This document shows positions 5,480-32,855 of a DNA stretch of 64,000 bases, one piece after another. The notes under the pieces were generated by a model that searched no databases, was not told the origin of the DNA, and saw nothing but the letters and a program-made list of their open reading frames with translations. A program made the translations under genes and the position numbers. Every line of letters starts with the position of its first letter. Within the stretch, counting starts at the first letter, position 1. Source of the DNA: Candidatus Bipolaricaulia bacterium (GTDB lineage: Bacteria > Bipolaricaulota > Bipolaricaulia > UBA7950 > UBA9294); assembly GCA_049643905.1 (NCBI GenBank), contig JBARQW010000100.1, forward strand, positions 7,115-71,114, given 5' to 3'.

Positions 5480-7579
5480 ATGGAGCGACTGTTCCGCCCG
5501 CGCTCGGTCGCGGTGATCGGTGCTTCGACAGACTCGGCCAAGATCGGGTATCGGGTGGTCGAGAACATCCTCTCGTCCGGGTATCGCGGTGCCGTTCACC
5601 CCGTCAACCCGCGGGGAGGCGAGCTCCTCGGCCTGCCCATTCATCCCTCGATCTCGGAGATCGAGGGAGAGGTCGACGTCGCCGTTGTGGCCATCCCTGC
5701 GGCCGGTGTCTTGCCCGTTGTGACGGAGTGCGGCGAGAAGGGCGTCGATCATCTCATCGTGCTGAGTTCCGGGTTTTCCGAAGTCGGCAAGATCGCAGAA
5801 GAGAAGAGAATCGCCGAGGTCGCCGCCGGCTTCGGCATGCGTGTTCTTGGGCCGAACGTCTTCGGCTTCTACTCGGCGGCGGGCTCGATCGATGCCACGT
5901 TCGGTCCCGGCGGGATCCGGCCCGGGCGGGTCGGGATCATCAGCCAGAGCGGCGCCCTCGGGATCGCAATGATCGGCAAGACCGCGGCGGAGTCGCTCGG
6001 CCTATCTGCGTTGATCTCGGTTGGGAACAAGGCGGACGTCGATGAGTCGGACGTGCTCGAGTACCTTGCCTCGGACGAGGAGACGGCCGTCGTCCTCCTC
6101 TACATCGAAGGCGTGAAGCGCGGTGAACGCCTCGTGGAGACGCTGTCGGAGATCACGAGACGGAAACCGGTGGTTGTGATCAAATCGGGGCGCTCGAAGC
6201 GCGGCGCGATGGCGGCCGCATCCCACACGGGTTCGCTCGCCGGAGCGGACGACGTCTTCGAGGATCTGATGCACCAGTGCGGCGTGCTGCGCGCGCGGAG
6301 CGTCCAGGAAGCGTTCGATTGGGTCGGGTTCATCGCGTCGTCTCCGGTGCCGCCAGGCACGGAGGCGGTCATCGTCACAAACGGTGGGGGCATCGGGGTG
6401 CTTGCGACCGATGCGTGCGAGGCGTTCGGCGTTCGGCTCTACGACGATCAAGGCGTCCTGCGCGAGGCATTCGCAGACGTGATGCCGGCGTTCGGCTCGT
6501 CGAAAAACCCGGTCGATCTGACCGGACAGGCGAACGCCTCGGCCTACGCAGACGCGCTCGGCAGGGTCCTTCAGGAGAATCGGATGCACGCGGCGATCGC
6601 CCTCTACTGTGAGACGGCAACGTCGGAGTCCGAGCGTTTCGAGAGCCTCCTTCGCGACGTGTACGAGCAGTATCGCGACAGGAAGCCGATCGTCTTCTCG
6701 TTGTTCGGAGGCGCGGCGACTGCCGGGGTCATTCGGGCGCTTAAAGGAGAGGGGATCCCGGTCTATGGCGACGTCTACGAGGCCGTGTCGCCTCTCGGCG
6801 CTCTCTATCGTGCTTGGCGACGATTCGGAGAGCCGCCTGACTCGCCCATCGACGTGGACATCGACCTCGATGCCGCGCGCAGAATCCTCAGGGTCGCGGG
6901 CGCGGAGGGCCGCGGATTCCTGCTCGCAGACGAGGCGGCTCGCTTTGCGGAGCTCATCGGCCTCACGATGCCCGAAGCGGGTATCGCACGCGGTCTGGAC
7001 GAGGCCGTGAGAGCGGCCGAGTCAATAGGCTATCCCGTCGTGATGAAGATCGTGTCGAAGGACATCGTGCACAAGAGCGATGCCGGAGGTGTCGCCCTCG
7101 ACCTCTCTGACGAGGGCGAAGTCGTCGACGCCTACCAGGCGATCATCCGGAGCTGCCGGGCCCACAGTCCGCACGCCGAGATCAAGGGTGTGGAGGTCGC
7201 CGAGATGATCCGTCCCGGCGTGGAGACGATCGTTGGTGCGCGTCAGGATCCCTCGTTCGGGCCGGTCATGATGTTCGGTCTTGGTGGGATCTACGTTGAG
7301 GTCATGAGGGATGTCGCCTTTCGAAAGGCGCCCGTCGGGTTGAAGACGGCGAACGAGATGATTGCCGGGATACGCTCGTACCCCCTATTGCTCGGAGTGC
7401 GGGGCGAGCGTCGAAAGGACATCGACGAGCTGGCAGGAGTCATCGTGCGTTTGAGCCATCTGATCTCGAATTGCCGAGAGATCAGCGACATCGAGATCAA
7501 TCCGTTGGTTGTCTACGATCGCGGCGAAGGCGTCCGAGCCGTCGACGTGAGAGTCCTGTTTGATGTTCAAAGGGGGTGA
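5480..7579 (+). CDS. ADP-forming acetyl-CoA synthetase / acyl-CoA synthetase (NDP-forming), fused alpha-beta form
   Basis: N-terminal CoA-binding 'SVAVIGASTDSAKIGYRV', succinyl-CoA-synthetase-like flavodoxin domain, phosphohistidine region 'ASHTGSLAG', C-terminal ATP-grasp 'PVVMKIVSKDIVHKSDAGGVALDL'. Start MERLF at 5480 with a GAAGGA SD. Confidence 0.8.
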   Translation: MERLFRPRSVAVIGASTDSAKIGYRVVENILSSGYRGAVHPVNPRGGELLGLPIHPSISEIEGEVDVAVVAIPAAGVLPVVTECGEKGVDHLIVLSSGFSEVGKIAEEKRIAEVAAGFGMRVLGPNVFGFYSAAGSIDATFGPGGIRPGRVGIISQSGALGIAMIGKTAAESLGLSALISVGNKADVDESDVLEYLASDEETAVVLLYIEGVKRGERLVETLSEITRRKPVVVIKSGRSKRGAMAAASHTGSLAGADDVFEDLMHQCGVLRARSVQEAFDWVGFIASSPVPPGTEAVIVTNGGGIGVLATDACEAFGVRLYDDQGVLREAFADVMPAFGSSKNPVDLTGQANASAYADALGRVLQENRMHAAIALYCETATSESERFESLLRDVYEQYRDRKPIVFSLFGGAATAGVIRALKGEGIPVYGDVYEAVSPLGALYRAWRRFGEPPDSPIDVDIDLDAARRILRVAGAEGRGFLLADEAARFAELIGLTMPEAGIARGLDEAVRAAESIGYPVVMKIVSKDIVHKSDAGGVALDLSDEGEVVDAYQAIIRSCRAHSPHAEIKGVEVAEMIRPGVETIVGARQDPSFGPVMMFGLGGIYVEVMRDVAFRKAPVGLKTANEMIAGIRSYPLLLGVRGERRKDIDELAGVIVRLSHLISNCREISDIEINPLVVYDRGEGVRAVDVRVLFDVQRG

Positions 7580-7586
7580 AGCGGCC

Positions 7587-8633
7587 GTGAAGTCTTTGAT
7601 CCTAGCATCGACGAGAGAAGGGGCGGGGAAGACGAGCATGGCGATTGGGCTGGCCGGCGCCGTGAACCGGCGGTTCGGCTACGTCAAGCCGCTTGGAGAC
7701 CGGTTCCGTTACAGGAAGAAGCGGCTGTGGGACCGCGACGCGGCCCTGTTCATCAATCTCCTCGATCTCGGCGTGAAGCCGGAGTCCACGAGCCTCGGTT
7801 TCGACCACTCAAAGCTGAGGTACTCGTTCGACCGAGATGGCACGATCACGGCCCTTCGAGAGAGCGTCGAGGGGGCGAGTGGGGGCCGGGATGCCGTTCT
7901 GATCGAATGTGGGAAGAACCTGTCGTACGGGTCGTCCGTCTTCCTGGATCCGCTGACGATCTCACAGCAGACGGGCGATCCGGTCGTCATCATCGCCAGC
8001 GGCTCGGAGGACGCGATCGCCGACGATCTGGCGTTCGTCGAGCGGTTCGTCGGAACGGATGAGGCGAACGTTGCAGGCGTGATCATCAACAAGGTCGTTC
8101 ATCTCGATGCGTTCCGCAGTTCGCACCTCCCCGAGATCGAGAAGCTTGGCGTTCGTGTATTCGGGGTCGTGCCGTACCAGGAAGAGCTGACCACGCTCTC
8201 GGTCTCCACCGTCTCCGAAGAGCTGTCGGCCCGAATCCTCGCAGGCGAGGCTGGGTTGAGTGGGACGATCCGAACGGTCGCGGTCGGAGCGATGTCGGTC
8301 GGCGCCGCGATGTCGGAGCCCTTGATCACGGCGCCGGACAAACTGGTCATCACGAGTGGAGATCGCAGCGACATGATTCTTGCTGCGATCGATGCCGGCG
8401 GCACCTCAGCGATCGTCCTCACCAACAACATCGTGCCGCCCGCGAACATCGTCTCGCGCGCCGGCGAAATCGGGATTCCGCTTCTCCTCGTTCCGGACGA
8501 CACGTATGCCGTCGCGCTCCAAGTGGAGCGCATCGAACCGGTGCTCAGTTCCGAGGATGGAGCCAAGCTCGGCCTTCTCCGGGAACTCGTTGCGGCGCAT
8601 GTCGACGTGCAAGCAATCGAGAACCTGATCTGA
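7587..8633 (+). CDS. Pta-N-terminal-domain-like protein (CobQ/MinD-like P-loop domain plus DRTGG domain), no acetyltransferase catalytic domain
   Basis: P-loop 'STREGAGKTSMAIGL', 'GDRSD' (DRTGG-like) region; start GTG 7587 preceded by AAAGGGGGTGA SD (alternative ATG 7563); overlaps acd stop. Confidence 0.6.
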   Translation: MKSLILASTREGAGKTSMAIGLAGAVNRRFGYVKPLGDRFRYRKKRLWDRDAALFINLLDLGVKPESTSLGFDHSKLRYSFDRDGTITALRESVEGASGGRDAVLIECGKNLSYGSSVFLDPLTISQQTGDPVVIIASGSEDAIADDLAFVERFVGTDEANVAGVIINKVVHLDAFRSSHLPEIEKLGVRVFGVVPYQEELTTLSVSTVSEELSARILAGEAGLSGTIRTVAVGAMSVGAAMSEPLITAPDKLVITSGDRSDMILAAIDAGGTSAIVLTNNIVPPANIVSRAGEIGIPLLLVPDDTYAVALQVERIEPVLSSEDGAKLGLLRELVAAHVDVQAIENLI

Positions 8634-19920: not shown

Positions 19921-21672
19921 TTGGCTCGGAAACGAATCTACGAGATCGCCAAAGAACTCGGCGTGACCAACAAAGAGCTGATTGCGAAGCTCGACGAGAT
20001 GGGCATGCCGGACATGAAGGCGTCGAATTCGGTCGACGAGGAAGAGCACGCCCTCATCGTCCACTTTCACCAGGACGAGGCGACGCCTGAACCTGCGGCG
20101 CAAGAGCCGGCAGCCGAGGGCGCCGCCGTACCAGACGAGAAGCCGGCACCCGTCAGAAAGAAGCGCCCGAGTCACGGTGATCCGCGGCCGCCAGTCGTCT
20201 CGGTCCTCGGCCACATCGATCACGGCAAGACGACACTGCTCGACGCGATACGGGAATCCCATCTCGCCGAGGGAGAAGCAGGCGGTATTACGCAGGGAAT
20301 CGCGGCATATCAGGCCGACCTGGGCGGACGGAGGATCACGTTCGTCGATACGCCTGGCCACAAGGCGTTCACTGGAATGCGCGCTCGCGGTGCGCAGGTG
20401 ACCGACATCGCGATCCTCGTCGTCGCGGCCGACGATGGTGTCATGGCACAGACGGCCGAAGCGATCGACCACATCAAGGCCGCCGGTGTCCCGATGATCG
20501 TGGCGATTAACAAGATCGATAAGTCGAATGCCGATCTCCCGAAGGTGATGAACGATCTTGCTCAGCGCGGACTCACTCCTGAAACGTGGGGCGGCGAAAC
20601 GATTACAGTGGAAGTTTCCGCACTTCAGAACCAGAACATTGAGGATCTGCTCGAGATGATCCTTCTCGTCGCTGACATGGAGGACCTTCGTGGCGATCCG
20701 AACGGGCCGATTGATGCGGTGGTGATCGAGAGTCACATCTCACCCGGCCGCGGGCCTGTCGCGACGGCGATCGTCAAGGACGGGACGCTTCGCGAAAAGG
20801 ATTGGATCGTTGCCGGATCGACGTACGGGCGCGTCAAGGCGTTGCTGGACGGAGCCCGCAACCGAGTCAGCGAAGCGAAGCCGGGGGATGCCGTAGAGAT
20901 CCTCGGGTTCAGCGACGTGCCTCCCGTGGGGACCGAGATCGTTGTGGCCGAAAGCCAGACCGCAGCTCGTCGAGCTGTCGTCGGGACGGCGGGAGAGACG
21001 AGAACGCGGCAGGCTCCCCGTCCGATGACCCTTGAGGATTTCTTCGGCGAAGCCGAGGAGGTTCACAAGGTGCAGTTGATCCTCAAGGCCGCGACGACCG
21101 GAGCGCTCGAGGCGGCTCGTCGAGAGATCGCGGGGCTCGAACCCGAGAGCGTTGAGATCGATGTGCTTCTCACTGGCGTTGGACCGATCTCGGAGAGCGA
21201 CGTGATCCTCGCATCGACCGTGACCGACGGGTGCCCAGTCATCGGGTTTGGCGTGAAGGCCGACGCGAAGGCTTCACGGCTCGCCGAGCGAGAAGGGGTC
21301 TCGGTTCTTACCTACGACGTGATCTACGACCTGATCGCCGAGCTGGAGAAGATTCTCAAGCGTGCGCTCGGCCCGACGTACGTCGAATCGCAGCTCGGAG
21401 TCGCCGAGGTGCGCGACACGTTCAAAGTCCCGACCGGGATCGTCGCCGGGTGTGCCGTCGTCGATGGCAGGATTGCACGTAGCGGGAAGATACGCGTAGT
21501 TCGCGCTGACGAGGAGGTGTTCGTCGGGGAAATTGCATCCCTGCGACGCTTCGAGGATGACGTGCGCGAAGTGGAGTCTGGCCGGGAGTGCGGAATTCGG
21601 ATTCGGGACTTCGACGACGTTCAGGTCGGCGATCGTCTCGTCGTCTTCCAGCTGGATGAGGTCGAGCCCTGA
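19921..21672 (+). CDS. infB: translation initiation factor IF-2 (short form)
   Basis: '[15 protein letters not shown]' N-domain, G-domain '[14 protein letters not shown]', 'DTPGH', 'NKID'. TTG start. Confidence 0.9.
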
Positions 21673-21683
21673 GCGACGGTGCA

Positions 21684-21968
21684 ATGAAGGCTGGCTTGCT
21701 CACCCTCTCGTTTCGGTTGTACGCGGTCGACACTCTGAAGGCGAGGCGTTCAATCGTGAAACGGATCCTCGCAGACGTTCACCGACTAGGGCCTGCATTC
21801 GCAGTGTGTGAAATCCCCGATCAAGCTGGGCTCTCCCATCTCACGATCCGTGTCGCCCACGTGTCTGCCGACGCGCGTTTCACCGACTCCGCGTTGCGCC
21901 GCGCTGCGGATCGGTTCGAACACAAGGCCGACTACGAAGTTGCAGAGTCGGCAATCGAGATCCTATGA
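21684..21968 (+). CDS. DUF503 family protein (YlxP-like, infB-rbfA operon member)
   Basis: 94 aa between infB and rbfA, the conserved position of ylxP/DUF503. Confidence 0.6.
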   Translation: MKAGLLTLSFRLYAVDTLKARRSIVKRILADVHRLGPAFAVCEIPDQAGLSHLTIRVAHVSADARFTDSALRRAADRFEHKADYEVAESAIEIL

Positions 21969-22519: not shown

Positions 22520-23974
22520 ATGCAGACGGATCGGATCGACGTTGAAGCCGTGTTTCGGAGGCACCCGTTCGCCAGCACGATCCTCAAGCGGTTGCACGAC
22601 GGGGGGCATGACGCCTACTTCATCGGCGGAGTTGTGCGGGATGGCCTACAGCTTGCCTTGGGGCGTGATGTCTCCTTTCCTCCTGACGACATAGACATCG
22701 CCACGTCCGCTGTTCCGGCCGAGGTTCGGAAGCTCTTCCCGGATTGCCCGATCGTCACTGTGGGCGAGGAGTTCGGCGTGCTCGTCGTTGTGGGGCCTGG
22801 AGGACGCTCGTACGAGGTTGCATCGTTCCGTGTCGAGGGCGAGTACGACGGCCGCTGGCCGGGCCGCGTCGATCTGGTTCGCGAGCTTGAAGGCGATGTC
22901 GGACGCCGGGATCTTACGATCAACGGCCTCGCGGCGACCGCTCTCGGCGACGTGATCGATCTGGTGGGAGGGATAGAGGATCTCGTTGCCAAGCGAGTCC
23001 GCGCGATCGGGGACCCACGGACCCGGTTTCGCGAGGACTACCTTCGCCTGCTGCGGGCCGTGCGGTTCGTCTGTCAGATCGATGGCTCGCTCGACGGGGA
23101 GACGTCATCGGCGATCGCCGAAGGCGCGGCACAGATTCTCTCGATCTCACAGGAGCGGATCCGTGACGAGCTGCTGGGGATTCTCTCCACTTCCCAGGCG
23201 GCGAGAGGTTTCACCCTCTTGGACGAGCTGGGACTCCTCCAGCAGGTCCTGCCGGAATTGACGATGGCCAAGGGCGTTCCCCAGCCGGAGGTCTATCACC
23301 CTGAAGGGGACGTCTTCGTCCACACGCTTGAAGCCGTCCGGATGGCCGACAGGTTTGTCAGGGATCCGATCGTGAAGTTAGCGGTTCTCCTTCACGATGT
23401 CGGGAAGCCGATCGCCCTGAGGAGAAGCGACGGAGCGAACATGGGCGGGCACTGCGCAATCGGCGCCCGGATGGTTCGGAACATCGGGGCACGCCTCCGA
23501 ATGAGCCGCGAAGAGATTGCCAGGTTGGCCTTCTTGGTGAAGAACCACATGCGAATCGCCGCGCTGCCGGAGATGGGGCGAGGGAAGCAGGTTCGCTTCG
23601 TCAGCACGGGCGAGCGCCACGACGAAGATGGGCTGGCGACGCGATACCCAGTCTTCTTCGATCTGCTTCAAGTCCTCGTCGCTGATTGCGAGGCGAGCGC
23701 GCATCGCTCAACGGGGTGGGCGCCGGTCCTGCATGAGACGTTGCGTGTGGCGGAGCACATCGACGTGGTGTGCGGGATGAAACAGGCGAGGGAGTTGATT
23801 GATGGGAACGTGCTGATCGATCTCGGTCTTTCCCCCGGCCCGTCACTCGGCCGCGTGTTGGCCGATCTGCACGATCGCATTCTCGCTGGGGAAATCACTA
23901 CGCGGGAGGAAGCGATCGACGTCGCGCGCTCCGCGATCGACTTGGACCGAGAGGGGAACAACGACGGCGCGTAA
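22520..23974 (+). CDS. cca: CCA-adding tRNA nucleotidyltransferase / poly(A) polymerase family protein with HD domain
   Basis: Head domain 'GGVVRDGL...DIDIAT' plus 'RRDLTINGLA', and an HD region 'HTLEAV...LLHDVGKP'. Start MQTDRIDVEAVF at 22520. Confidence 0.75.
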   Translation: MQTDRIDVEAVFRRHPFASTILKRLHDGGHDAYFIGGVVRDGLQLALGRDVSFPPDDIDIATSAVPAEVRKLFPDCPIVTVGEEFGVLVVVGPGGRSYEVASFRVEGEYDGRWPGRVDLVRELEGDVGRRDLTINGLAATALGDVIDLVGGIEDLVAKRVRAIGDPRTRFREDYLRLLRAVRFVCQIDGSLDGETSSAIAEGAAQILSISQERIRDELLGILSTSQAARGFTLLDELGLLQQVLPELTMAKGVPQPEVYHPEGDVFVHTLEAVRMADRFVRDPIVKLAVLLHDVGKPIALRRSDGANMGGHCAIGARMVRNIGARLRMSREEIARLAFLVKNHMRIAALPEMGRGKQVRFVSTGERHDEDGLATRYPVFFDLLQVLVADCEASAHRSTGWAPVLHETLRVAEHIDVVCGMKQARELIDGNVLIDLGLSPGPSLGRVLADLHDRILAGEITTREEAIDVARSAIDLDREGNNDGA

Positions 23975-24073
23975 GGGGACACGCGCCCTGGCGAACCTGG
24001 CTTCGGCTGGAGTAGCCTCTGCTCGGGGTTTCAGGAGGGTTTGGGAAGGGAAGCGACCGCCTCCGACCGAGCT

Positions 24074-25612
24074 ATGGGGACAGCACTCAACATAAGTCAA
24101 GATCTCGATCTGGATCTCGAGCAGATCATCGGGCAATGCATTGCCATCCTCGGGATTCGCGGATCGGGGAAGTCGAACACTGCGGGTGTCATCTTTGAGG
24201 AGCTTCTGAGAAACAACTACCCGATGTCGATTGTCGACATCGAGGGCGAGTACTTCGGCCTGAAAGAGAGCTACGAGGTTCTCGTCGTCGGAACAGGCGA
24301 GGGCGTCGAGATCGAGATCGACGCGGACAGCGCCGGTGAGATCGCTCAAGTGAGCATGGAACAGAATGTCCCGGTCGTCCTTGATCTGAGCGGGTTCCTC
24401 TCGGAGGAACGGACAGAGGTTCTCAAGGCGTATCTGTCGAGCCTCTGGAACTTGGCGGGTCGGCTCCGTCGTCCCTACATCATTGGGATTGAGGAAGCGC
24501 ATGAGTTCATCCCGCAGAGCGTGAAAACCGAGCTCAAAGAGATGATCGCACGGATTGCCCTACGTGGCAGGAAACGCGGCCTCGGAGGGATCATCGTCTC
24601 TCAAAGAAGCGCGAAGGTTGAGAAAGACGTGCTGAGTCAGGCCGGCATCCTGTTTCTCCACCGCGTCGTCCATGAGGTCGACATGCGCGTCTACGGCGAA
24701 CTCCTGCCGTGGCGGAAGAGCGAAGTGAAGGAAATCATCGGCTCTCTGGACACGGGCGACTGCATCTACCTCAATGGGGAGTCGATCCTGCCGATCTACG
24801 TACGGGAGCGGTCAACCTTCCACGCGGGGTTCACGCCATCGCTGGAGGCCGTGGCATCGCCGATGCTGAAACAAGTGAGCGCGTCGATTATCGAGGCGAT
24901 CGAGCGCGCGCGCGGCGGGAAGCGGAAGAAGACCCAGTTGCAGGAACTCGAAGGGAAGATCGAACGGCTGGAGGAGGAGCTTGCGAAGCGGGATCATGCG
25001 ATCTCGGGACTCGAAGACGTCGCACGGACTCTTGGATACATCCGCTTCGATGTCCCGGGAACCGCAGACGCGTGCGAATCCAGCGTCGACGGGGAGAGGC
25101 CAGCGATCGTCACACGAAGCGCCGCCAGCGAGTCGCGAGACGCCGCGAGCCAGGTACCGCAGCCACTGGGACTTATCAGTGGGAACGAAGAGGGGCTTGA
25201 CTCCCCCGTGATTGACATCACCGGGGGCGTTGAAGATGAGCGAGAGGAGCTTCCTCCGGCCGTCTTGCGCCACATCGATCGCTTGGTTTCCCGCGTCGCG
25301 AAGAAAGACCTCCTACAAAGACGACTCCTAGCGTTTCTGGTCGGGAGAGCTCCGGGAACGTACACGGTCGACCAACTTGCCGCGTGGACCGACTGCGCGA
25401 AGGGCTTGATCGATGACGAGCCTCCACGCGATTTCCTGGATGAGGGCCTGATCACGAGGGAGCGCCGTACAGACGGGATGCACTACCGGAGCTGCGTCAA
25501 GTCGTTCGTCCAAAGGGAATTCGGCATCTACCAGCCCGACATCGGCATGGACGGCCTTCATGCGGTGACGCAGCACCTGCAGCAACGTCTCTCTGCTGTG
25601 GCGGCGATCTAG
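24074..25612 (+). CDS. HerA/DUF87-like P-loop ATPase with central coiled coil and C-terminal winged-helix-like domain (start ATG 24074 or TTG 24041)
   Basis: Walker A 'ILGIRGSGKSNTAGV', Walker B 'PYIIGIEEAHEF', 'RGRKRGLGGIIVSQRSAKVEKDVLSQAGILFLHRV' (the HerA/FtsK-class arginine/Gln box), coiled coil 'KTQLQELEGKIERLEEELAKRD', C-terminal 'LLAFLVGRAPGTYTVDQLAAWTD...FLDEGLITRERRTDGMHYR'. Confidence 0.65.
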   Translation: MGTALNISQDLDLDLEQIIGQCIAILGIRGSGKSNTAGVIFEELLRNNYPMSIVDIEGEYFGLKESYEVLVVGTGEGVEIEIDADSAGEIAQVSMEQNVPVVLDLSGFLSEERTEVLKAYLSSLWNLAGRLRRPYIIGIEEAHEFIPQSVKTELKEMIARIALRGRKRGLGGIIVSQRSAKVEKDVLSQAGILFLHRVVHEVDMRVYGELLPWRKSEVKEIIGSLDTGDCIYLNGESILPIYVRERSTFHAGFTPSLEAVASPMLKQVSASIIEAIERARGGKRKKTQLQELEGKIERLEEELAKRDHAISGLEDVARTLGYIRFDVPGTADACESSVDGERPAIVTRSAASESRDAASQVPQPLGLISGNEEGLDSPVIDITGGVEDEREELPPAVLRHIDRLVSRVAKKDLLQRRLLAFLVGRAPGTYTVDQLAAWTDCAKGLIDDEPPRDFLDEGLITRERRTDGMHYRSCVKSFVQREFGIYQPDIGMDGLHAVTQHLQQRLSAVAAI

Positions 25613-26259: not shown

Positions 26260-27318
26260 GTGGTTAAGGTTCTGTCGCTGTTCTCCGGGAGCCTGGCAAG
26301 TCGAGTGGCAACGCGCTTGACGGAGATACACCCGGAGGTCGAGAGTGTATGTCTTCTGCACTTCCGTTCTCCTTTTGCCAGGGAGCCAGAGGATCTCCGG
26401 CAACTTGTGAAGGATGAGTGGCCGGGGGTTCCTTTCCGAACACAGTCTCTGAAGAGGGAGTACGTGGGGGTGGTCGATCCGGCTTGCGGTGATTCGTTCA
26501 GTCTCTCTCGCAGTTGTGTGAATTGTCGCCGGCTTCTTATGACCAGAGCGCTCCGCTACATGGAACGAACCGGTTCGGACTTCCTGGTCACCGGCGAAAC
26601 GCTGGGACAGCACGGCGTCGGCGGAAGGGAGATGGCCGGAATGGCCGGCAGCCTTGGCTTGACGGACCGGATCCTTCGCCCGCTCTGCTCCAAAGGCCCA
26701 ATGGATGGCGCAAGCGATCTCGCGAGTTGGACCAAGCTCTCGAACGGCCGGAAGTCATACTGCATGGCTCCGGAGAGACTGCGAAAACTGGCCGAAGAAC
26801 TGGGAATGGAGTCTCGGGACCCGATGACGTCTCGAAATCGGTGCAAGCTGACGTTGCCGGGGTTCGGGGATCGTGTGGCGCACCTGTTCCACGAGAAGGG
26901 GTTCACGCTGAACGAGCTGCGGTTGCTCGATTTCCCCTTGTACTACGAAGTCCGGCCGGATGCGAAGGTCGTCGTCGCTGTTGATGAGCAGGAAAAGCGA
27001 GAGCTACAGAATCTCTTCCTTCCGCAGGACCTGCGAGTGTATCCGGCTGCTCCACACGGACCGATGACCCTTGTGAGAACGCGCTGGGATGCGAGACGCG
27101 AGCGAAGCAAGGACAACGTGATTAGACTGGCGGCGCGAATCACGGCGACGCACCTAGGTTGCGAGGGGGAGACGGCGACTCCGATCTACTACAGATTTGA
27201 GAACGAGAACGAGAGACTGCTCATGAATGTGGTGCCGTTCGCCTCCTGCGCAGAGATTGCGCTTGTCGACGGGATCGACGTTGTCCCACTGAATGATCGG
27301 GCGATATCGGTCGGTTGA
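26260..27318 (+). CDS. ThiI-like adenine-nucleotide alpha-hydrolase (PP-loop) family protein with degenerate PP-loop
   Basis: 'SGSLASRVA' (cf. ThiI SGGFDSPVA) and 'FLVTGETLGQHG' (cf. ThiI ILTGESLGQV); 'CVNCRR' Cys pair; unrelated C-terminal half. Confidence 0.5.
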   Translation: MVKVLSLFSGSLASRVATRLTEIHPEVESVCLLHFRSPFAREPEDLRQLVKDEWPGVPFRTQSLKREYVGVVDPACGDSFSLSRSCVNCRRLLMTRALRYMERTGSDFLVTGETLGQHGVGGREMAGMAGSLGLTDRILRPLCSKGPMDGASDLASWTKLSNGRKSYCMAPERLRKLAEELGMESRDPMTSRNRCKLTLPGFGDRVAHLFHEKGFTLNELRLLDFPLYYEVRPDAKVVVAVDEQEKRELQNLFLPQDLRVYPAAPHGPMTLVRTRWDARRERSKDNVIRLAARITATHLGCEGETATPIYYRFENENERLLMNVVPFASCAEIALVDGIDVVPLNDRAISVG

Positions 27319-27857: not shown

Positions 27858-30800
27858 GTGATTTCTGGCGATGACATCAAGAGCGTGAAGCTGCAGCTCG
27901 CGCCACCGTCTGTGATTCTCGGGTGGTCTCACGGAGAAGTTACCGAGTCCGAGACGATCAATTACCGAACGCACCGCGCGGAGCGAGGAGGACTGTACGC
28001 CGAGGAGATCTTCGGCCCGGCGAACGACTACGAGTGCGCATGCGGGAAGTACAAGGGGAAGAAGTACGAAGGCATCACGTGCGAAAAGTGCCACGTTCTT
28101 GTGACCGACTCGTCGGTGAGGCGCGTCAACATGGCGCACATCCAGCTGGCGAGCCCGGTCGTCCATTTCTGGTTCCTAAAGGGAGTTTCGAGCCTTCTCA
28201 GCCGGCTTCTCGGCCTGAAGAAGAGGGAGCTTCAGCGGATCGCCTACTACGAGACTGAGCCGATGGAGCAAGCGCTCTACATGGTGACCTCTTCCGAGTG
28301 CAAGGACGTGCGTCCGGGAGAGACTCTCTACGCTTCAGAAGTTGAGGTCCTCGGGAGCGCGTTCGCGTTTGAGGTCGAGCCTGCCTACTTCGTCGAGGCT
28401 GCTCCTCGGGTGCTCGCTGAGGAGGAAGGGCGCGCGACGATCGAGGATCGCCAGCTCACCAACGGAGAGAAGTTCCGGTCCGTCGTGATCGGGTCGCAGG
28501 AGTATCCGCTTGTCGGCGACGTCGACCTCCTCATTGAAGACGGGGATGACATCGCGGCGGGCGCTGTCATCGTGGAACGTCCCGTGGACGAGCTGTGCTC
28601 AAAGACGGCGTTCGAGATGCTCGTCGATCGCTACGGCCCGGCGGTCAAGGGAGAGGACCTTGATCGCGAGATCCTTGACAGTCTCGTCTTTATCGTGACC
28701 CGACTCAAGGATCCAGATGTGCCCCTCGAGATTGGGGATCGATTGACGAATCTCGAAATGCGAGCCTACGAGCGGATTTATCCGTCCGGGTTCATTGCAG
28801 CGACCGGGGCTGCCGGGATCAAGGGGCTCCTCGAAGTGCTCGACATGAATGAGCTCCACCGTGTTCTGACCGAGCAGCTACGACGAGAGACGGCCGTCGG
28901 GAACAAGCGGCGCATCGTGAGACGACTTGAAGTGGTCGATCAACTCATTTCCTCGGGGAATAACGCTCAGGACATGGTCCTCGATGTGATTCCTGTCCTG
29001 CCGCCGGATCTGCGTCCGATGATTCAGTTAGAGGGCGGGAAGTTTGCAACGACGGACCTCAACGACCTGTACCGTCGAATCATCAACCGGAACAACCGGC
29101 TGAAGAAGCTTATCGACATGGGGGCTCCGGAGGTCATTCTGCGGAACGAACGCCGGATGCTCCAGGAAGCGGTCGATGCACTGATCCACAACGAGAAGAA
29201 AGAGAGCCCGATCCGCGGCCGCGACAACCGCCCGCTCAAGTCTCTGTCAGAGCGAATCCACGGGAAGCACGGCCGTCTCCGTCGGAACCTTCTTGGGCGA
29301 CGTGTCGACTACTCAGGGCGAGCCGTGATCGTCGTCGACCCGAAACTTCGTCTTCATCAGTGCGGACTTCCGAAGAAGATGGCCCTCGAGCTGTTCAAGC
29401 CGTTCATCCTGCATTATCTCGAGACGACGACATTCTCCGACTTTGACGAGATCAAGAATCGAGCGCTGGTGGGCGAAATGCCGGAGGTGTGGGACATCCT
29501 CGACAAGCTGATCAAGGATCACCCCGTCCTGCTGAATCGTGCGCCGACGCTTCATCGGCTCTCGATGCAGGCGTTCGAACCTGTGCTCGTCGACGGCGAG
29601 GCGATCCACATCCATCCGCTCGTCTGTTCGCCGTACAACGCCGACTTCGATGGAGATCAGATGGCCGTACACCTTCCTCTCTCCCCGGAGGCAATCCGGG
29701 AGGCTCGCGAGCTGATGGCCGCCCCGCGGAACATCCTGTCTCCGGCGAGCGGAGAGCCGCTAAGCCTTCCATCGCAGGACCCGGTCTATGCGTACTACTA
29801 CCTGACGCTCGAGGAGACTGACGGGGCGGGAGCAGGGAAAGCGTTCCGCGACATCGACGAGGCGCGTCGTGCTTGCGAGGAGGGCGTCCTTGGCCTCCAC
29901 AGCCCTGTTCGGATTCGCGTTGACGGGAAGCTGATCGAGACAACTCTCGGTCGAGCGGAGCTGAATCTCGCCTTTCCCGAGGAGATTCGGGACTACGGCA
30001 ACGTCCTCGACCGTCGTGCGATCAAGCGACTGGTGATGCAGAGTTACCACAAGTTCGGCTGGGAAAGAACGGCCGTGGTCCTCGACAACCTGAAGGATCT
30101 CGGATTCAAATATGCGACGCAGGCCGGCCTCACGATCTCCTTGAAAGACTGCCTGATTCCGGAAGAGAAAGAGGAGATTATCCGAGAGTCGCTCGCCGCT
30201 GTGCAGCGGATCGAGACGATGTTCAGGATGGGGTTGGCAACGGAGGAAGAGCGTCAGAACGCCGTGATCCGGATCTGGCGTCGAACGGTCGACGATGTCG
30301 AGGATGTCACGATGCAGAATCTCCGGAGCCACAAATTCAACCCCGTCTACGGCATGGTGACGTCCGGGGCTCGTGGCGGCCCGGACCAGGTGAAGCAGCT
30401 GTGCGGCATGCGGGGTCCGATGGCCGGACCTTCGGGCGAGATCATCGAACGCCCCGTCATCTCGAATTTCCGCGAAGGGTTGGACATGTTGGAGTACTTC
30501 ATTTCCACCCACGGCGGACGAAAGGGAGCCGCCGACACGGCGCTCAAGACAGCCGACTCGGGATACCTCACGCGGAGACTCGTCGACGCCTCTTCGGACA
30601 CCATGATCCTCGAGGTCGACTGCGGAACGACGCAGGGCTCGGAGATCTCGCCTCTTCGATTCAGCAGGACCGAGGTCATGGAGTCGATCGAGGATCGGGT
30701 GTACGGTCGAGTGGCGGCGCAACCGATCGTCGATCCGGGAAGCGGAGAGATTCTCGTCGAGGCGAATCAGTGGATCACGCGCGAGATCGCTTCGCATCTC

Positions 30801-32855
30801 AGCCAGCTGGAGTGTGAGCTTCCTCTCAAGAGTCCGGCTCAGCGCGAGCGCCTGATCGGCACGAAGAGCATCGAGGACGTCGCGGATCCGAAGTCGGGAC
30901 GCGTTCTGGTCAAGGCGGACGAAACGATCGCACCTCTGCTCTTGGATGCGCTCAAGGCGGCCAAGATCACGACGGTTCGTGTTCGCCCCAGGATCATCAT
31001 CCGCTCCGCCATGTTGTGCGAGACGGTTGGCGGGATCTGCCAGTTCTGCTATGGCTTCGACATGAGCAACCACCAACCGGTCCAGCTGGGAACGGCCGTT
31101 GGCGTGATCGCCGCTCAGTCGATTGGAGAGCCAGGGACCCAGCTGACGATGCGAACCTTTCACACCGGTGGCGTCGCCGGCGAAGACATCACGCAGGGTC
31201 TCCCGCGCGCCGAAGAGCTGTTCGAGGCTCGGAAGACGACGAAGGGCGGCGAGGCTGGGATCTCTCCTCTCGATGGTTACGTGACAGACATCTCCTCGAC
31301 CGCGACAGCTGGAGACCGCGTCGAGATCACCGGCGAGTCGAGGACTGCAATCCTGCCCGCCGCACTTGTTCGTGACGAGGTGGTCGAGGGTGAGGAGATC
31401 GACGTCGAAACCCTGATCGATCGGAGCAGCCCATGTGCAGGTGAGGTATACGTTATCGAATCGGACGGGCGAAGAGACATGCTTCTCCTCGACACGACGT
31501 CGGGGGATCGATCGTATGCCATCCCTGCGAACGCGGCGCCGGCGGTAAAGACGGGCAAGAAGATCTCGACTGGCGACGCGCTGTCGAACCGGTTCAACAT
31601 TGAGCCGATGGTTGCCGAGCATCGTGGGATAGTTCAGATCTCGGAAGAGGACGAGCGTCTATTCCAGCTTGTCGGGGACGACGGGAGTTTCATCGAGCAT
31701 CGCATACCGTTCGGCGCCAGGTTGATGGTTGAGTCAGGCGACAAGGTCTCCGCCGGGACGCAGCTCACATCTCGCTCGAAGCCGATCTTCGTGGCAGCCG
31801 AGAACGATGGAAGAGCGGAAGTGCTGGACGACTACGTTCTCGTCTACAACCCCGACGGAGGGGGTCTGCGGATTCCTCTGACCTCCGATGTAAGTTTCAT
31901 TGGCGACCACGGTGGCACCGTCAAGTCGGGAGAACGACTTGTTCAGCTTGAGATTTCGCATACTGGTACCGTGATCGTCGAGTCGATCGAGACGAAGGAC
32001 GAGGTCACCGTCGTGAAACTGAGGCCGAAGAGCAGTGTCAAGATCGACAAGGCCGTGACGGTCCGGGTGGGCGAGAAACTGGAGAAGGGCGATCCACTGA
32101 CCAAGGGCGCCGTTGCGCCACTCACCCTGCTCGACGAGGCGGGGGTACACAAGACGAGAGAGTACTTCCTGAACGAGATCCACAAGGTCTACAAGCAGCA
32201 GGGCGTGGACATCAACGACAAGCACCTCGAGGTGATCATCCGTCAGATCCTGAACAACGTACGGGTCGTCGACCGGGGTGATTCCCGTTTCCTCCTCGGC
32301 GATCTTGTGCCGTTGGAGGAGTTCCGGCACGAAGTGAGAAGGCTTGCCGAGGAGAATGAAGAGGTGGAACGAGCTCGCAGAGAGGCAATTGGGGTCAAGG
32401 TGGCGGAGGACGTCGTGGCAGCAGGTCATCTACTTGCATCCGCCGGGGAGTTGCTGACGGAAGAAGTGATCGCCGGGGCGCGCAAGATGGGACTCGCGAG
32501 CGTACGCATTCAGCATGGGGACGACTCGGAGGAGCTTCTTCTCGTTGAGAAGCTCCTACCGGACGGGGAGCGCGAGCTTCTACGGATCTCCAAAGCGGCT
32601 TTGCAGACGAAGGGCTGGTTGTCCGCTGCCTCCTTCCAGCGAACGACCAAGGTCCTCGCTGAGGCCGCTCTGCGCGGCGAGGTAGATGAGCTCGGTGGTC
32701 TGAAGCCGAGCATCATCGTCGGCAAGAGAATTCCCGCGGGAACGGGCTTCTCCGTTCCTGGAGGCCTCGAAGGAGTTGAGGATGATCTCGATGCGGTCGA
32801 GGGTGTCGATCTGGTCGGACGCGTCCCGATCGAAGAGACCGTTGAGGCGAGTTGA
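27858..32855 (+). CDS. rpoC: DNA-directed RNA polymerase subunit beta-prime, 1665 aa with large lineage-specific insertions
   Basis: N-terminal Zn finger '[21 protein letters not shown]', 'NADFDGDQM' catalytic loop, trigger-loop '[11 protein letters not shown]'. There is an insert of about 200 aa after the Zn finger and about 300 aa after 'LFEAR'. GTG start. Confidence 0.9.

Follow-up and report, generated by a model that had tools for sequence, protein, structure and literature searches.

Why does a HerA-like ATPase that carries a coiled coil and a C-terminal winged helix stand between cca and hpf on a bacterial chromosome? The question is raised by a gene, here called X, at 24074..25612 on the plus strand of a 64,000-nt window, the whole stretch of DNA analysed here, which covers positions 7,115-71,114 of contig JBARQW010000100.1 (assembly GCA_049643905.1) from a Candidatus Bipolaricaulia bacterium (Acetothermia/OP1). 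A sequence-only reading of this window had presented X as an orphan of unrecognised architecture, possibly a self-contained defence module. We give about an even chance to a different answer: that X encodes an anciently domesticated DNA motor of mobile elements, which in the Bipolaricaulota would serve chromosome maintenance (segregation, decatenation, dimer resolution, or repair or replication restart) rather than defence. New here are a conserved promoter-like module upstream of X and, in the chromosomal clade of its family, a recognition helix that has turned acidic. A full-text literature search found nothing on the X family, or on the X gene in Bipolaricaulota/Acetothermia, save a note of 2014 on arCOG00280.

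The domains of X

The longest open reading frame (ORF) of X, 24041..25612 (+), would encode 523 amino acids (aa) from a TTG codon. The NCBI gene call and an alignment of 33 orthologues agree on a start at the internal ATG at 24074, and residues are numbered here on the resulting protein of 512 aa. This protein is 100% identical to the NCBI entry 'ATP-binding protein [Candidatus Bipolaricaulia bacterium]' (P0001, 512 aa), and no transmembrane segment was found in it (maximum hydropathy 1.06). Every motif quoted in the sequence-only reading is present, and its division of the protein into a HerA-class ATPase, a coiled coil and a C-terminal winged helix was borne out by profiles, by alignment and by an AlphaFold model, a monomer built from the orthologue alignment.

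Residues 1-260 (24074..24853, +) form the P-loop ATPase core, which was assigned to the HerA clade by Pfam DUF87, HerA profiles and HerA structures in the PDB. DUF87 ('Helicase HerA central domain') matches X with E=1.7e-15 and 58 bits against a cut-off of 23, and the PDB sequence matches are HerA chains throughout, with residue-level alignments to 4d2i and 9x1l. Twelve HerA profiles of PADLOC also match, though, like the NCBIfam HerA profiles, only with their own C-terminal ATPase parts, as does the mad8 profile, which spans the whole ATPase (E 2.4e-12). The features that X shares with canonical HerA are DxxGEY after strand 2, an hhhhEEAH Walker B, a (R)GRK(F/R)G loop and an SQRP-type sensor. 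In X, all on the plus strand, Walker A lies at 24152-24175 (starting at residue 27), DIEGEY, the HerA-specific DxxGEY, at 24236-24253, the EEAH-type Walker B at 24479-24508 and the RGRKRG loop at 24563-24580. The family alignment shows no variation in DIEGEY, the EEAH-type Walker B, RGRKRG or SQR, even in relatives at 30% overall identity, and the ATPase should therefore be active. A further motif, TFHAGFTPS (residues 248-256; 24815..24841, +), lies in a low-confidence part of the model and is invariant family-wide, its T248, H250, G252 and P255 being invariant or nearly so down to the same 30% overall identity.

Canonical HerA, as found in the archaeal end-resection helicase HerA-NurA and in the bacterial anti-phage HerA-Sir2 and HerA-DUF4297 systems, belongs to the same RecA-like ATPase clade as X and gives its best matches in sequence and structure, but X departs from it (COG0433) in having neither a HAS-barrel nor a partner nuclease or effector, and in falling short of the family score cut-offs. 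The N-terminal HAS-barrel is absent: only 26 residues precede Walker A, and the model has no more than two short helices ahead of the first strand. In HerA profiles and PDB chains, the part that aligns with X begins at about their position 130-170 for the first stretch and 345-520 for the second. X has either lost the HAS-barrel and the nuclease partner or never had them. The NCBIfam HerA equivalogs NF040819, NF040937 and NF042943/4 reach 66.5, 59.1, 50.1 and 47.8 bits against cut-offs of 970, 800, 850 and 800. The full-length model has structural matches in HerA hexamers and in B204, a packaging NTPase of STIV2; HerA-Sir2 and HerA-DUF4297 are also among its structural neighbours. These neighbours, together with the PADLOC matches to HerA models and mad8, could be taken to mean that X is a stand-alone anti-phage or abortive-infection module, whose winged helix senses invading DNA and whose effector is lacking or encoded elsewhere. 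However, the matches are at the level of the domain and far under the family cut-offs (48-50 bits against 800-850 for the anti-phage HerA families of NCBIfam).

In place of the C-terminal region proper to HerA, X continues with a coiled coil, then a long linker and finally a winged helix. The helical segment at residues 262-320 (24857..25033, +) is modelled as helices at 262-280 and 283-320, of which the second is the coiled coil of the sequence-only reading, and ends in a conserved ARTLGYI motif. It is followed by an acidic, Ser/Ala-rich linker (residues 321-389; 25034..25240, +) that is predicted to be disordered, with a predicted local distance difference test score (pLDDT) below 50, and that differs greatly in length among orthologues. 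Residues 390-512 (25241..25609, +) comprise a winged helix-turn-helix domain with two trailing helices. The possibility that the C-terminus has no DNA-binding fold had been raised beforehand and was checked: the domain is confidently modelled, with a winged-helix fold nearest to the MarR/ArsR/TrmB repressors. With this domain alone Pfam gave no match even at E<=10, and a profile search of 5.8 billion proteins, uninformative given the word-index limits of the tool, returned only four truncated orthologues. In the deeply branching orthologue P0123 (445 aa; 7001-8338 of loci L122/L123) the coiled coil and ARTLGYI are missing, yet ATPase, winged helix and the arrangement cca-X-hpf persist, which makes ATPase plus winged helix the conserved functional unit. 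We also considered a split-gene (Rosetta-stone) arrangement, in which ATPase-only relatives (L034, L035) would have a separate gene for the C-terminal half, and rejected it: the gene downstream in L035 gave a non-significant BLASTP match (E=0.03).

FtsK, SpoIIIE, SftA and Streptomyces TraB provide a precedent, missed by the sequence-only reading, for a translocase motor that ends in a winged helix. These are hexameric pumps of double-stranded DNA in which a C-terminal winged helix, 'gamma', reads short DNA motifs and loads or orients the motor; SftA is a soluble motor of this type. X follows the same order of motor and winged helix, but as an analogy of design, the domains not being homologous: Pfam found neither FtsK_SpoIIIE (PF01580) nor Ftsk_gamma (PF09397) in X, with the C-terminal domain searched even at E<=10. 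X belongs to a different clade from the FtsK-type motors, has no membrane anchor, and places a coiled coil and a disordered tether of 65-100 aa between motor and winged helix. We regard X, with moderate confidence, as a soluble DNA motor, predicted to form rings, that belongs to the HerA clade within the FtsK-HerA superfamily.

X on the Bipolaricaulota chromosome

More than 1000 homologues of X were detected, and the best 120 are full-length and 64-82% identical. In the six loci obtained by exact protein look-up the order X-hpf-PP-loop/NFACT-R-rpoC is found throughout, preceded by cca in 5/5 with upstream sequence. In 23 Bipolaricaulota species representatives from GTDB genomes the order is identical wherever the contig reaches, apart from L013, which has rpoC elsewhere. 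The deep lineage P0123 (53% identity) has cca-X-hpf-...-rpoC-rpsL, and upstream of these ATP synthase and RRF in place of infB and rbfA; in the sister lineage P0122 (56% identity) X adjoins HU and pheS. The flanks given by the sequence-only reading are thus correct, and the description of X as an orphan is not, since cca-X-hpf is kept in the 23 species representatives, in five further contigs and in the P0123 lineage. That reading had also held that its case would fall if X belonged to a widespread family with conserved cca/hpf synteny and a characterised function; the family is indeed large and syntenic, and no function has been characterised.

Nine of the loci (L008, L011, L015, L017, L020, L021, L023, L025 and L028) come from metagenome-assembled genomes named 'uncultured Thermotogae bacterium' (TPA entries). 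They have cca-X-hpf-PP-loop-rpoC, with X 60-72% identical to the window protein; the label is probably wrong or outdated, and the genomes look like Bipolaricaulota.

Within the phylum, mean identity to the window protein is 88% (82-96%) for the ATPase domain, 62% (54-80%) for the coiled coil, 19% (9-33%) for the linker and 65% (53-83%) for the winged helix. For comparison, in the same loci cca is 60-74%, hpf 61-80% and the N-terminus of rpoC 77-93% identical. By this measure the ATPase domain evolves as slowly as rpoC and is under strong purifying selection. Composition gives no sign of a foreign origin: X has a GC content at third codon positions (GC3) of 0.745 and a codon-usage cosine of 0.96 to its pooled neighbours, and is indistinguishable from them. 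The remainder of the window holds ordinary genes of metabolism and translation, and among its annotated ORFs there was no integrase, nuclease partner, defence gene or virion gene. Recent horizontal acquisition, or a genomic island, is ruled out by native GC3 and codon usage, housekeeping surroundings and phylum-wide synteny. On this comparative evidence X behaves as a core gene, one that is old, vertically inherited and functionally important.

These results bear directly on the defence reading, which we consider very unlikely. Conservation, native composition and fixed synteny together indicate that X is not part of a defence island. No NurA, Sir2, DUF4297 or other effector lies beside X in the window or in any of 29 orthologous loci, as the sequence-only reading had stated for the window, although one could be encoded elsewhere in the genome. 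A fixed position, vertical inheritance and an evolutionary rate as slow as that of rpoC are the opposite of defence-gene dynamics, and the surroundings of X in the window are housekeeping only. The MADS system offers no better fit: the ATPase matches mad8, but no other mad genes are present, the neighbours being cca, hpf, the PP-loop gene and rpoC, and the PP-loop protein downstream of X had no PADLOC match. The proposal of a self-contained defence module is thus at odds with core-gene behaviour, an ATPase at 88% identity, native composition and the lack of integrase or island features.

The same synteny could be read in another way, with the position of X among cca, hpf, the PP-loop/NFACT-R gene, rbfA and infB reflecting a role in tRNA metabolism, the ribosome or hibernation, and the winged helix binding RNA as in SelB. 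We consider a translation- or RNA-linked role of this kind quite unlikely. The whole region of 15 kb is collinear across the phylum, and its synteny is therefore not specific to X. X and hpf each have an apparent promoter of their own (see below), the P0122 lineage has X beside HU and pheS, the characterised HerA-clade relatives matched here as PDB entries all act on DNA, and the relatives of X on mobile elements have no translation genes as neighbours.

The spacer between cca and X contains a conserved module and is otherwise unalignable. Its first part is an element, GGGACACGCGCCC (consensus GGGACA-NN-CG(C/G)CC), at 23976..23988 (+), 1 nt past the cca stop codon, and its second a -10-like hexamer, TAGCCT (TAnnnT), at 24013..24018 (+), which is the candidate promoter of X. 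In 27 Bipolaricaulota loci the element is exact in 11/27, has one mismatch in 13/27 and two in 3/27, and a TAnnnT sequence begins 36 or 37 nt from its start in 26/27. The spacing within the module is thus kept among loci in which the distance from element to start codon ranges from 74 to 189 nt and the position of the cca stop codon relative to the element start from -16 to +25 nt. In the window the exact sequence occurs once, and near-matches are no more frequent than expected by chance (22/100 shuffles reach the count). Loci with the exact element have one copy each, in the cca-X spacer, and the only other exact matches lie inside rpoC in L122/L123, where the element is absent before the X orthologue P0123. 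No KOPS-like repeated motif, as used by FtsK, was found in the window, and the single exact copy of the conserved candidate site in these 64 kb speaks against its use as such a guide. We also considered a structured RNA at this site; there was no Rfam match and no covariation, and with only 4 invariant pairs an element acting at the level of DNA is preferred. A hairpin at 23966-23987, a 6-bp GC-rich palindrome (GGCGCG-N10-CGCGCC) that runs across the cca stop codon and into the element, is terminator-like on the minus strand only in the scan; its stem is not kept in other loci, and it is probably incidental.

We read this module as a dedicated promoter of X with a candidate upstream protein-binding site centred near -43. 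A generic sigma-70 scan did not call the hexamer at 24013..24018; a sigma-70-like promoter was predicted ahead of hpf. A promoter module for X and a separate promoter for hpf suggest that X is its own transcription unit, which weakens arguments on its function drawn from its neighbours.

The module also brings in the possibility that X is an ATP-dependent transcription regulator, with the winged helix on an operator, possibly its own GGGACA-NN-CGCCC element, and the ring serving as a nucleotide-sensing switch or remodeller. The kinship of the winged helix with repressors of the MarR/ArsR/TrmB type would suit such a role, as would a conserved 13-nt element, unique in 64 kb, at about -49 to -37 relative to the -10-like hexamer, and six tethered DNA-binding domains would bind with high avidity. 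We nonetheless consider a regulator unlikely: the protein is tied to the element by proximity alone, and an ATPase at 88% identity with all of the HerA catalytic motifs points to a working motor.

Relatives on mobile elements

An exhaustive HMMER search over 1.84 billion cluster representatives (clusters at 50% identity) returned 8977 matches with E<=1e-3, of which 447 reach E<=1e-30. Proteins of 450-520 aa that align end to end at 30-45% identity are common among the matches. The family alignment shows the same parts throughout: the ATPase, an invariant TFHAGxTP motif, the coiled coil, a linker that varies, and a winged helix with an FPDLD-like motif at its end. At this level of clustering about three representatives stand for all Bipolaricaulota proteins; ten representatives from outside the phylum were looked up, and each stood alone or in a cluster of two, with no more than a generic name. 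The architecture that the sequence-only reading had not recognised therefore recurs in hundreds of clusters, and the contexts sampled are mostly phage, prophage or plasmid-like.

In IMG/VR the family occurs on 31 viral contigs, with matches over residues 2/11-483 in L087 and L090 and 28-463 in L091. On viral contigs a DnaB-like helicase and an HNH endonuclease are among the neighbours, and L090 has separate TerS, TerL (E 1.5e-71) and portal genes downstream. Five loci have ParA near a family member; an RNase T-type exonuclease is also found repeatedly, as is a pol-beta-like nucleotidyltransferase. In Anaerolineae, Promineifilaceae, Competibacter and Asgard loci the neighbours are ParB-like and ParM-like (actin) proteins, N6/N4 methylase, ASCH, DUF5131, a phage metallopeptidase and a TnsA-like nuclease. 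Among the closest relatives from outside the phylum, P0125 stands beside CcdA and a run of tiny ORFs, P0126 amid unannotated ORFs, and P0124 beside an ImmA/IrrE-type regulator and a helicase/methylase island. The last of these contexts would favour a defence role; against this, relatives of X are carried by phages themselves. In a cultured-phage database the single match was weak (30% identity, named 'hera helicase').

The systems closest in kind to X are the poorly described 'HerA-like helicases' of mobile elements (arCOG00280 of archaeal dark-matter islands; PHROG 2666 and 7035; mad8; STIV2 B204), ATPases of HerA/FtsK type that are minimal or, like X, without a HAS-barrel, and that viruses and integrated elements carry. 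PHROG 2666 and 7035 match X with E 1e-17 to 1e-23. In contrast, the Bipolaricaulota X is a fixed chromosomal gene. Viral packaging ATPases (PRD1 P9, STIV B204, PHROG 2666) would offer another function for the family, and PHROG 2666 is labelled 'terminase large subunit'. However, the X homologue in L090 coexists with separate TerS, TerL and portal genes and is therefore not the packaging enzyme there, and X had no double-jelly-roll capsid gene as a neighbour. We rejected the terminase label on this basis.

In a neighbour-joining tree of the ATPase domain, midpoint-rooted, effectively unrooted and without support values, the Bipolaricaulota sequences form one tight clade (distances <=0.21) nested in a far more diverse radiation. 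P0122, P0123 and then sequences of mobile-element type lie outside this clade, and viral copies are dispersed in the larger radiation. From this topology we infer that an ancient Bipolaricaulota ancestor captured the gene from a mobile element.

In the copies on mobile elements, a same-strand ORF of 115-303 aa lies upstream and usually abuts or overlaps the start codon of the ATPase (L030 5589-6008, L032 5094-6005, L033 1912-2730, L087 7666-8013, L089 7234-7974, L094 7588-7998, L096 3228-3746 and L124 1871-2644), which suggests that the two are translationally coupled. These ORFs belong to different sequence clusters, and no shared coupled partner emerged from them. The chromosomal Bipolaricaulota clade has no upstream ORF of this kind.

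The winged helix also differs between the chromosomal clade and its relatives. Across 33 Bipolaricaulota proteins the recognition-helix region has a net charge of -3.7 (range -5 to -1), compared with +0.9 in 27 relatives from outside the phylum (mostly of mobile-element type), whose sequence there is S/T-T-L/I-K/R-x-N-PP. Both groups have a basic wing. Since the region of the recognition helix is acidic in the Bipolaricaulota and has a positive net charge in relatives, the ligand may have changed, and the winged helix of the chromosomal clade may now bind a protein or another ligand. Both the acidic recognition-helix region and the placement of the mobile-element relatives in replication and partition modules, not beside regulators, speak further against X as a transcription regulator.

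Other genes in the window and the role of X

The gene rpoC (27858-32855, 1665 aa) is preceded by hpf and the PP-loop gene, not by rpoB, and the window contains no ORF of rpoB length, its only ORFs above 700 aa being rpoC and an acetyl-CoA synthetase of 779 aa. As hpf-PP-loop-rpoC-rpsL is the order in all orthologous loci, rpoB and rpoC are unlinked in the phylum. The PP-loop gene itself (26260-27318, +) encodes 352 aa, with an N-terminal ThiI/PP-loop-like ATPase region, matched weakly by Pfam and NCBIfam, and a C-terminal NFACT-R_2 RNA-binding domain. Every Bipolaricaulota locus has it between hpf and rpoC, though at just 44-68% identity, and it presumably encodes an RNA or tRNA modification enzyme. 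Two further features are kept across orthologous loci: a DUF503 gene (21684-21968) between infB and rbfA, and a short IF-2 of 583 aa (19921-21672).

For X itself, the reading as a domesticated motor would run as follows. The wider family would be a mobile-element gene of replication and partition regions in tailed phages, prophages and plasmid-like elements, of which one copy would have been captured by a Bipolaricaulota ancestor, placed between cca and hpf, provided with its own promoter and since kept under very strong purifying selection. By analogy, six subunits would form a ring and pump double-stranded DNA through its pore, with ATP hydrolysed at the subunit interfaces by K33 of Walker A, E140/E141 of Walker B and an arginine of the RGRKRG loop. 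The winged helices on their tethers would load the ring onto a DNA site or partner protein, or set its orientation there, as FtsK gamma and the C-terminal winged helix of TraB do for their motors. Hexamer formation, the DNA substrate, the direction of transfer and the cellular role are thus our inferences, drawn from comparison.

Several observations weigh against this reading. The neighbours of X are all translation or RNA genes, and a non-DNA role is conceivable. An acidic putative recognition helix fits poorly with classical reading of the major groove. The direction of transfer is not proven, given a midpoint-rooted tree without support values, in practice unrooted. The model is mediocre overall (pLDDT 65), with the ATPase part at low confidence. 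FtsK, RecA-family or other motors, if present in these genomes, would make the role of X redundant.

A bolder version, which we regard as doubtful, holds that a HerA-type motor derived from a phage or plasmid became an essential, phylum-defining chromosome-maintenance machine of the Bipolaricaulota, supplementing or replacing an FtsK-like function, with its winged helix re-tuned to a new ligand and with a dedicated operator-promoter. If true, bacteria would have a class of chromosome motor, so far unrecognised, that arose from a mobile element.

The finding overturns no concept, and no long-standing question depends on it. If X was domesticated, it would be a clean case of a mobile-element DNA motor that became a core gene, in a deep-branching and barely cultured phylum. 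X is conserved at the level of RNA polymerase and therefore likely has an important function, hidden until now by annotations such as 'ATP-binding protein' and 'DUF87'. The analysis also defines a large unnamed family, fusions of a HAS-less HerA ATPase with a winged helix in the replication and partition modules of phages and plasmids. A Bipolaricaulota isolate, strain J31, now exists (bioRxiv 10.1101/2025.11.21.689855), and together with the chromosomal clade it provides a tractable handle on this family.

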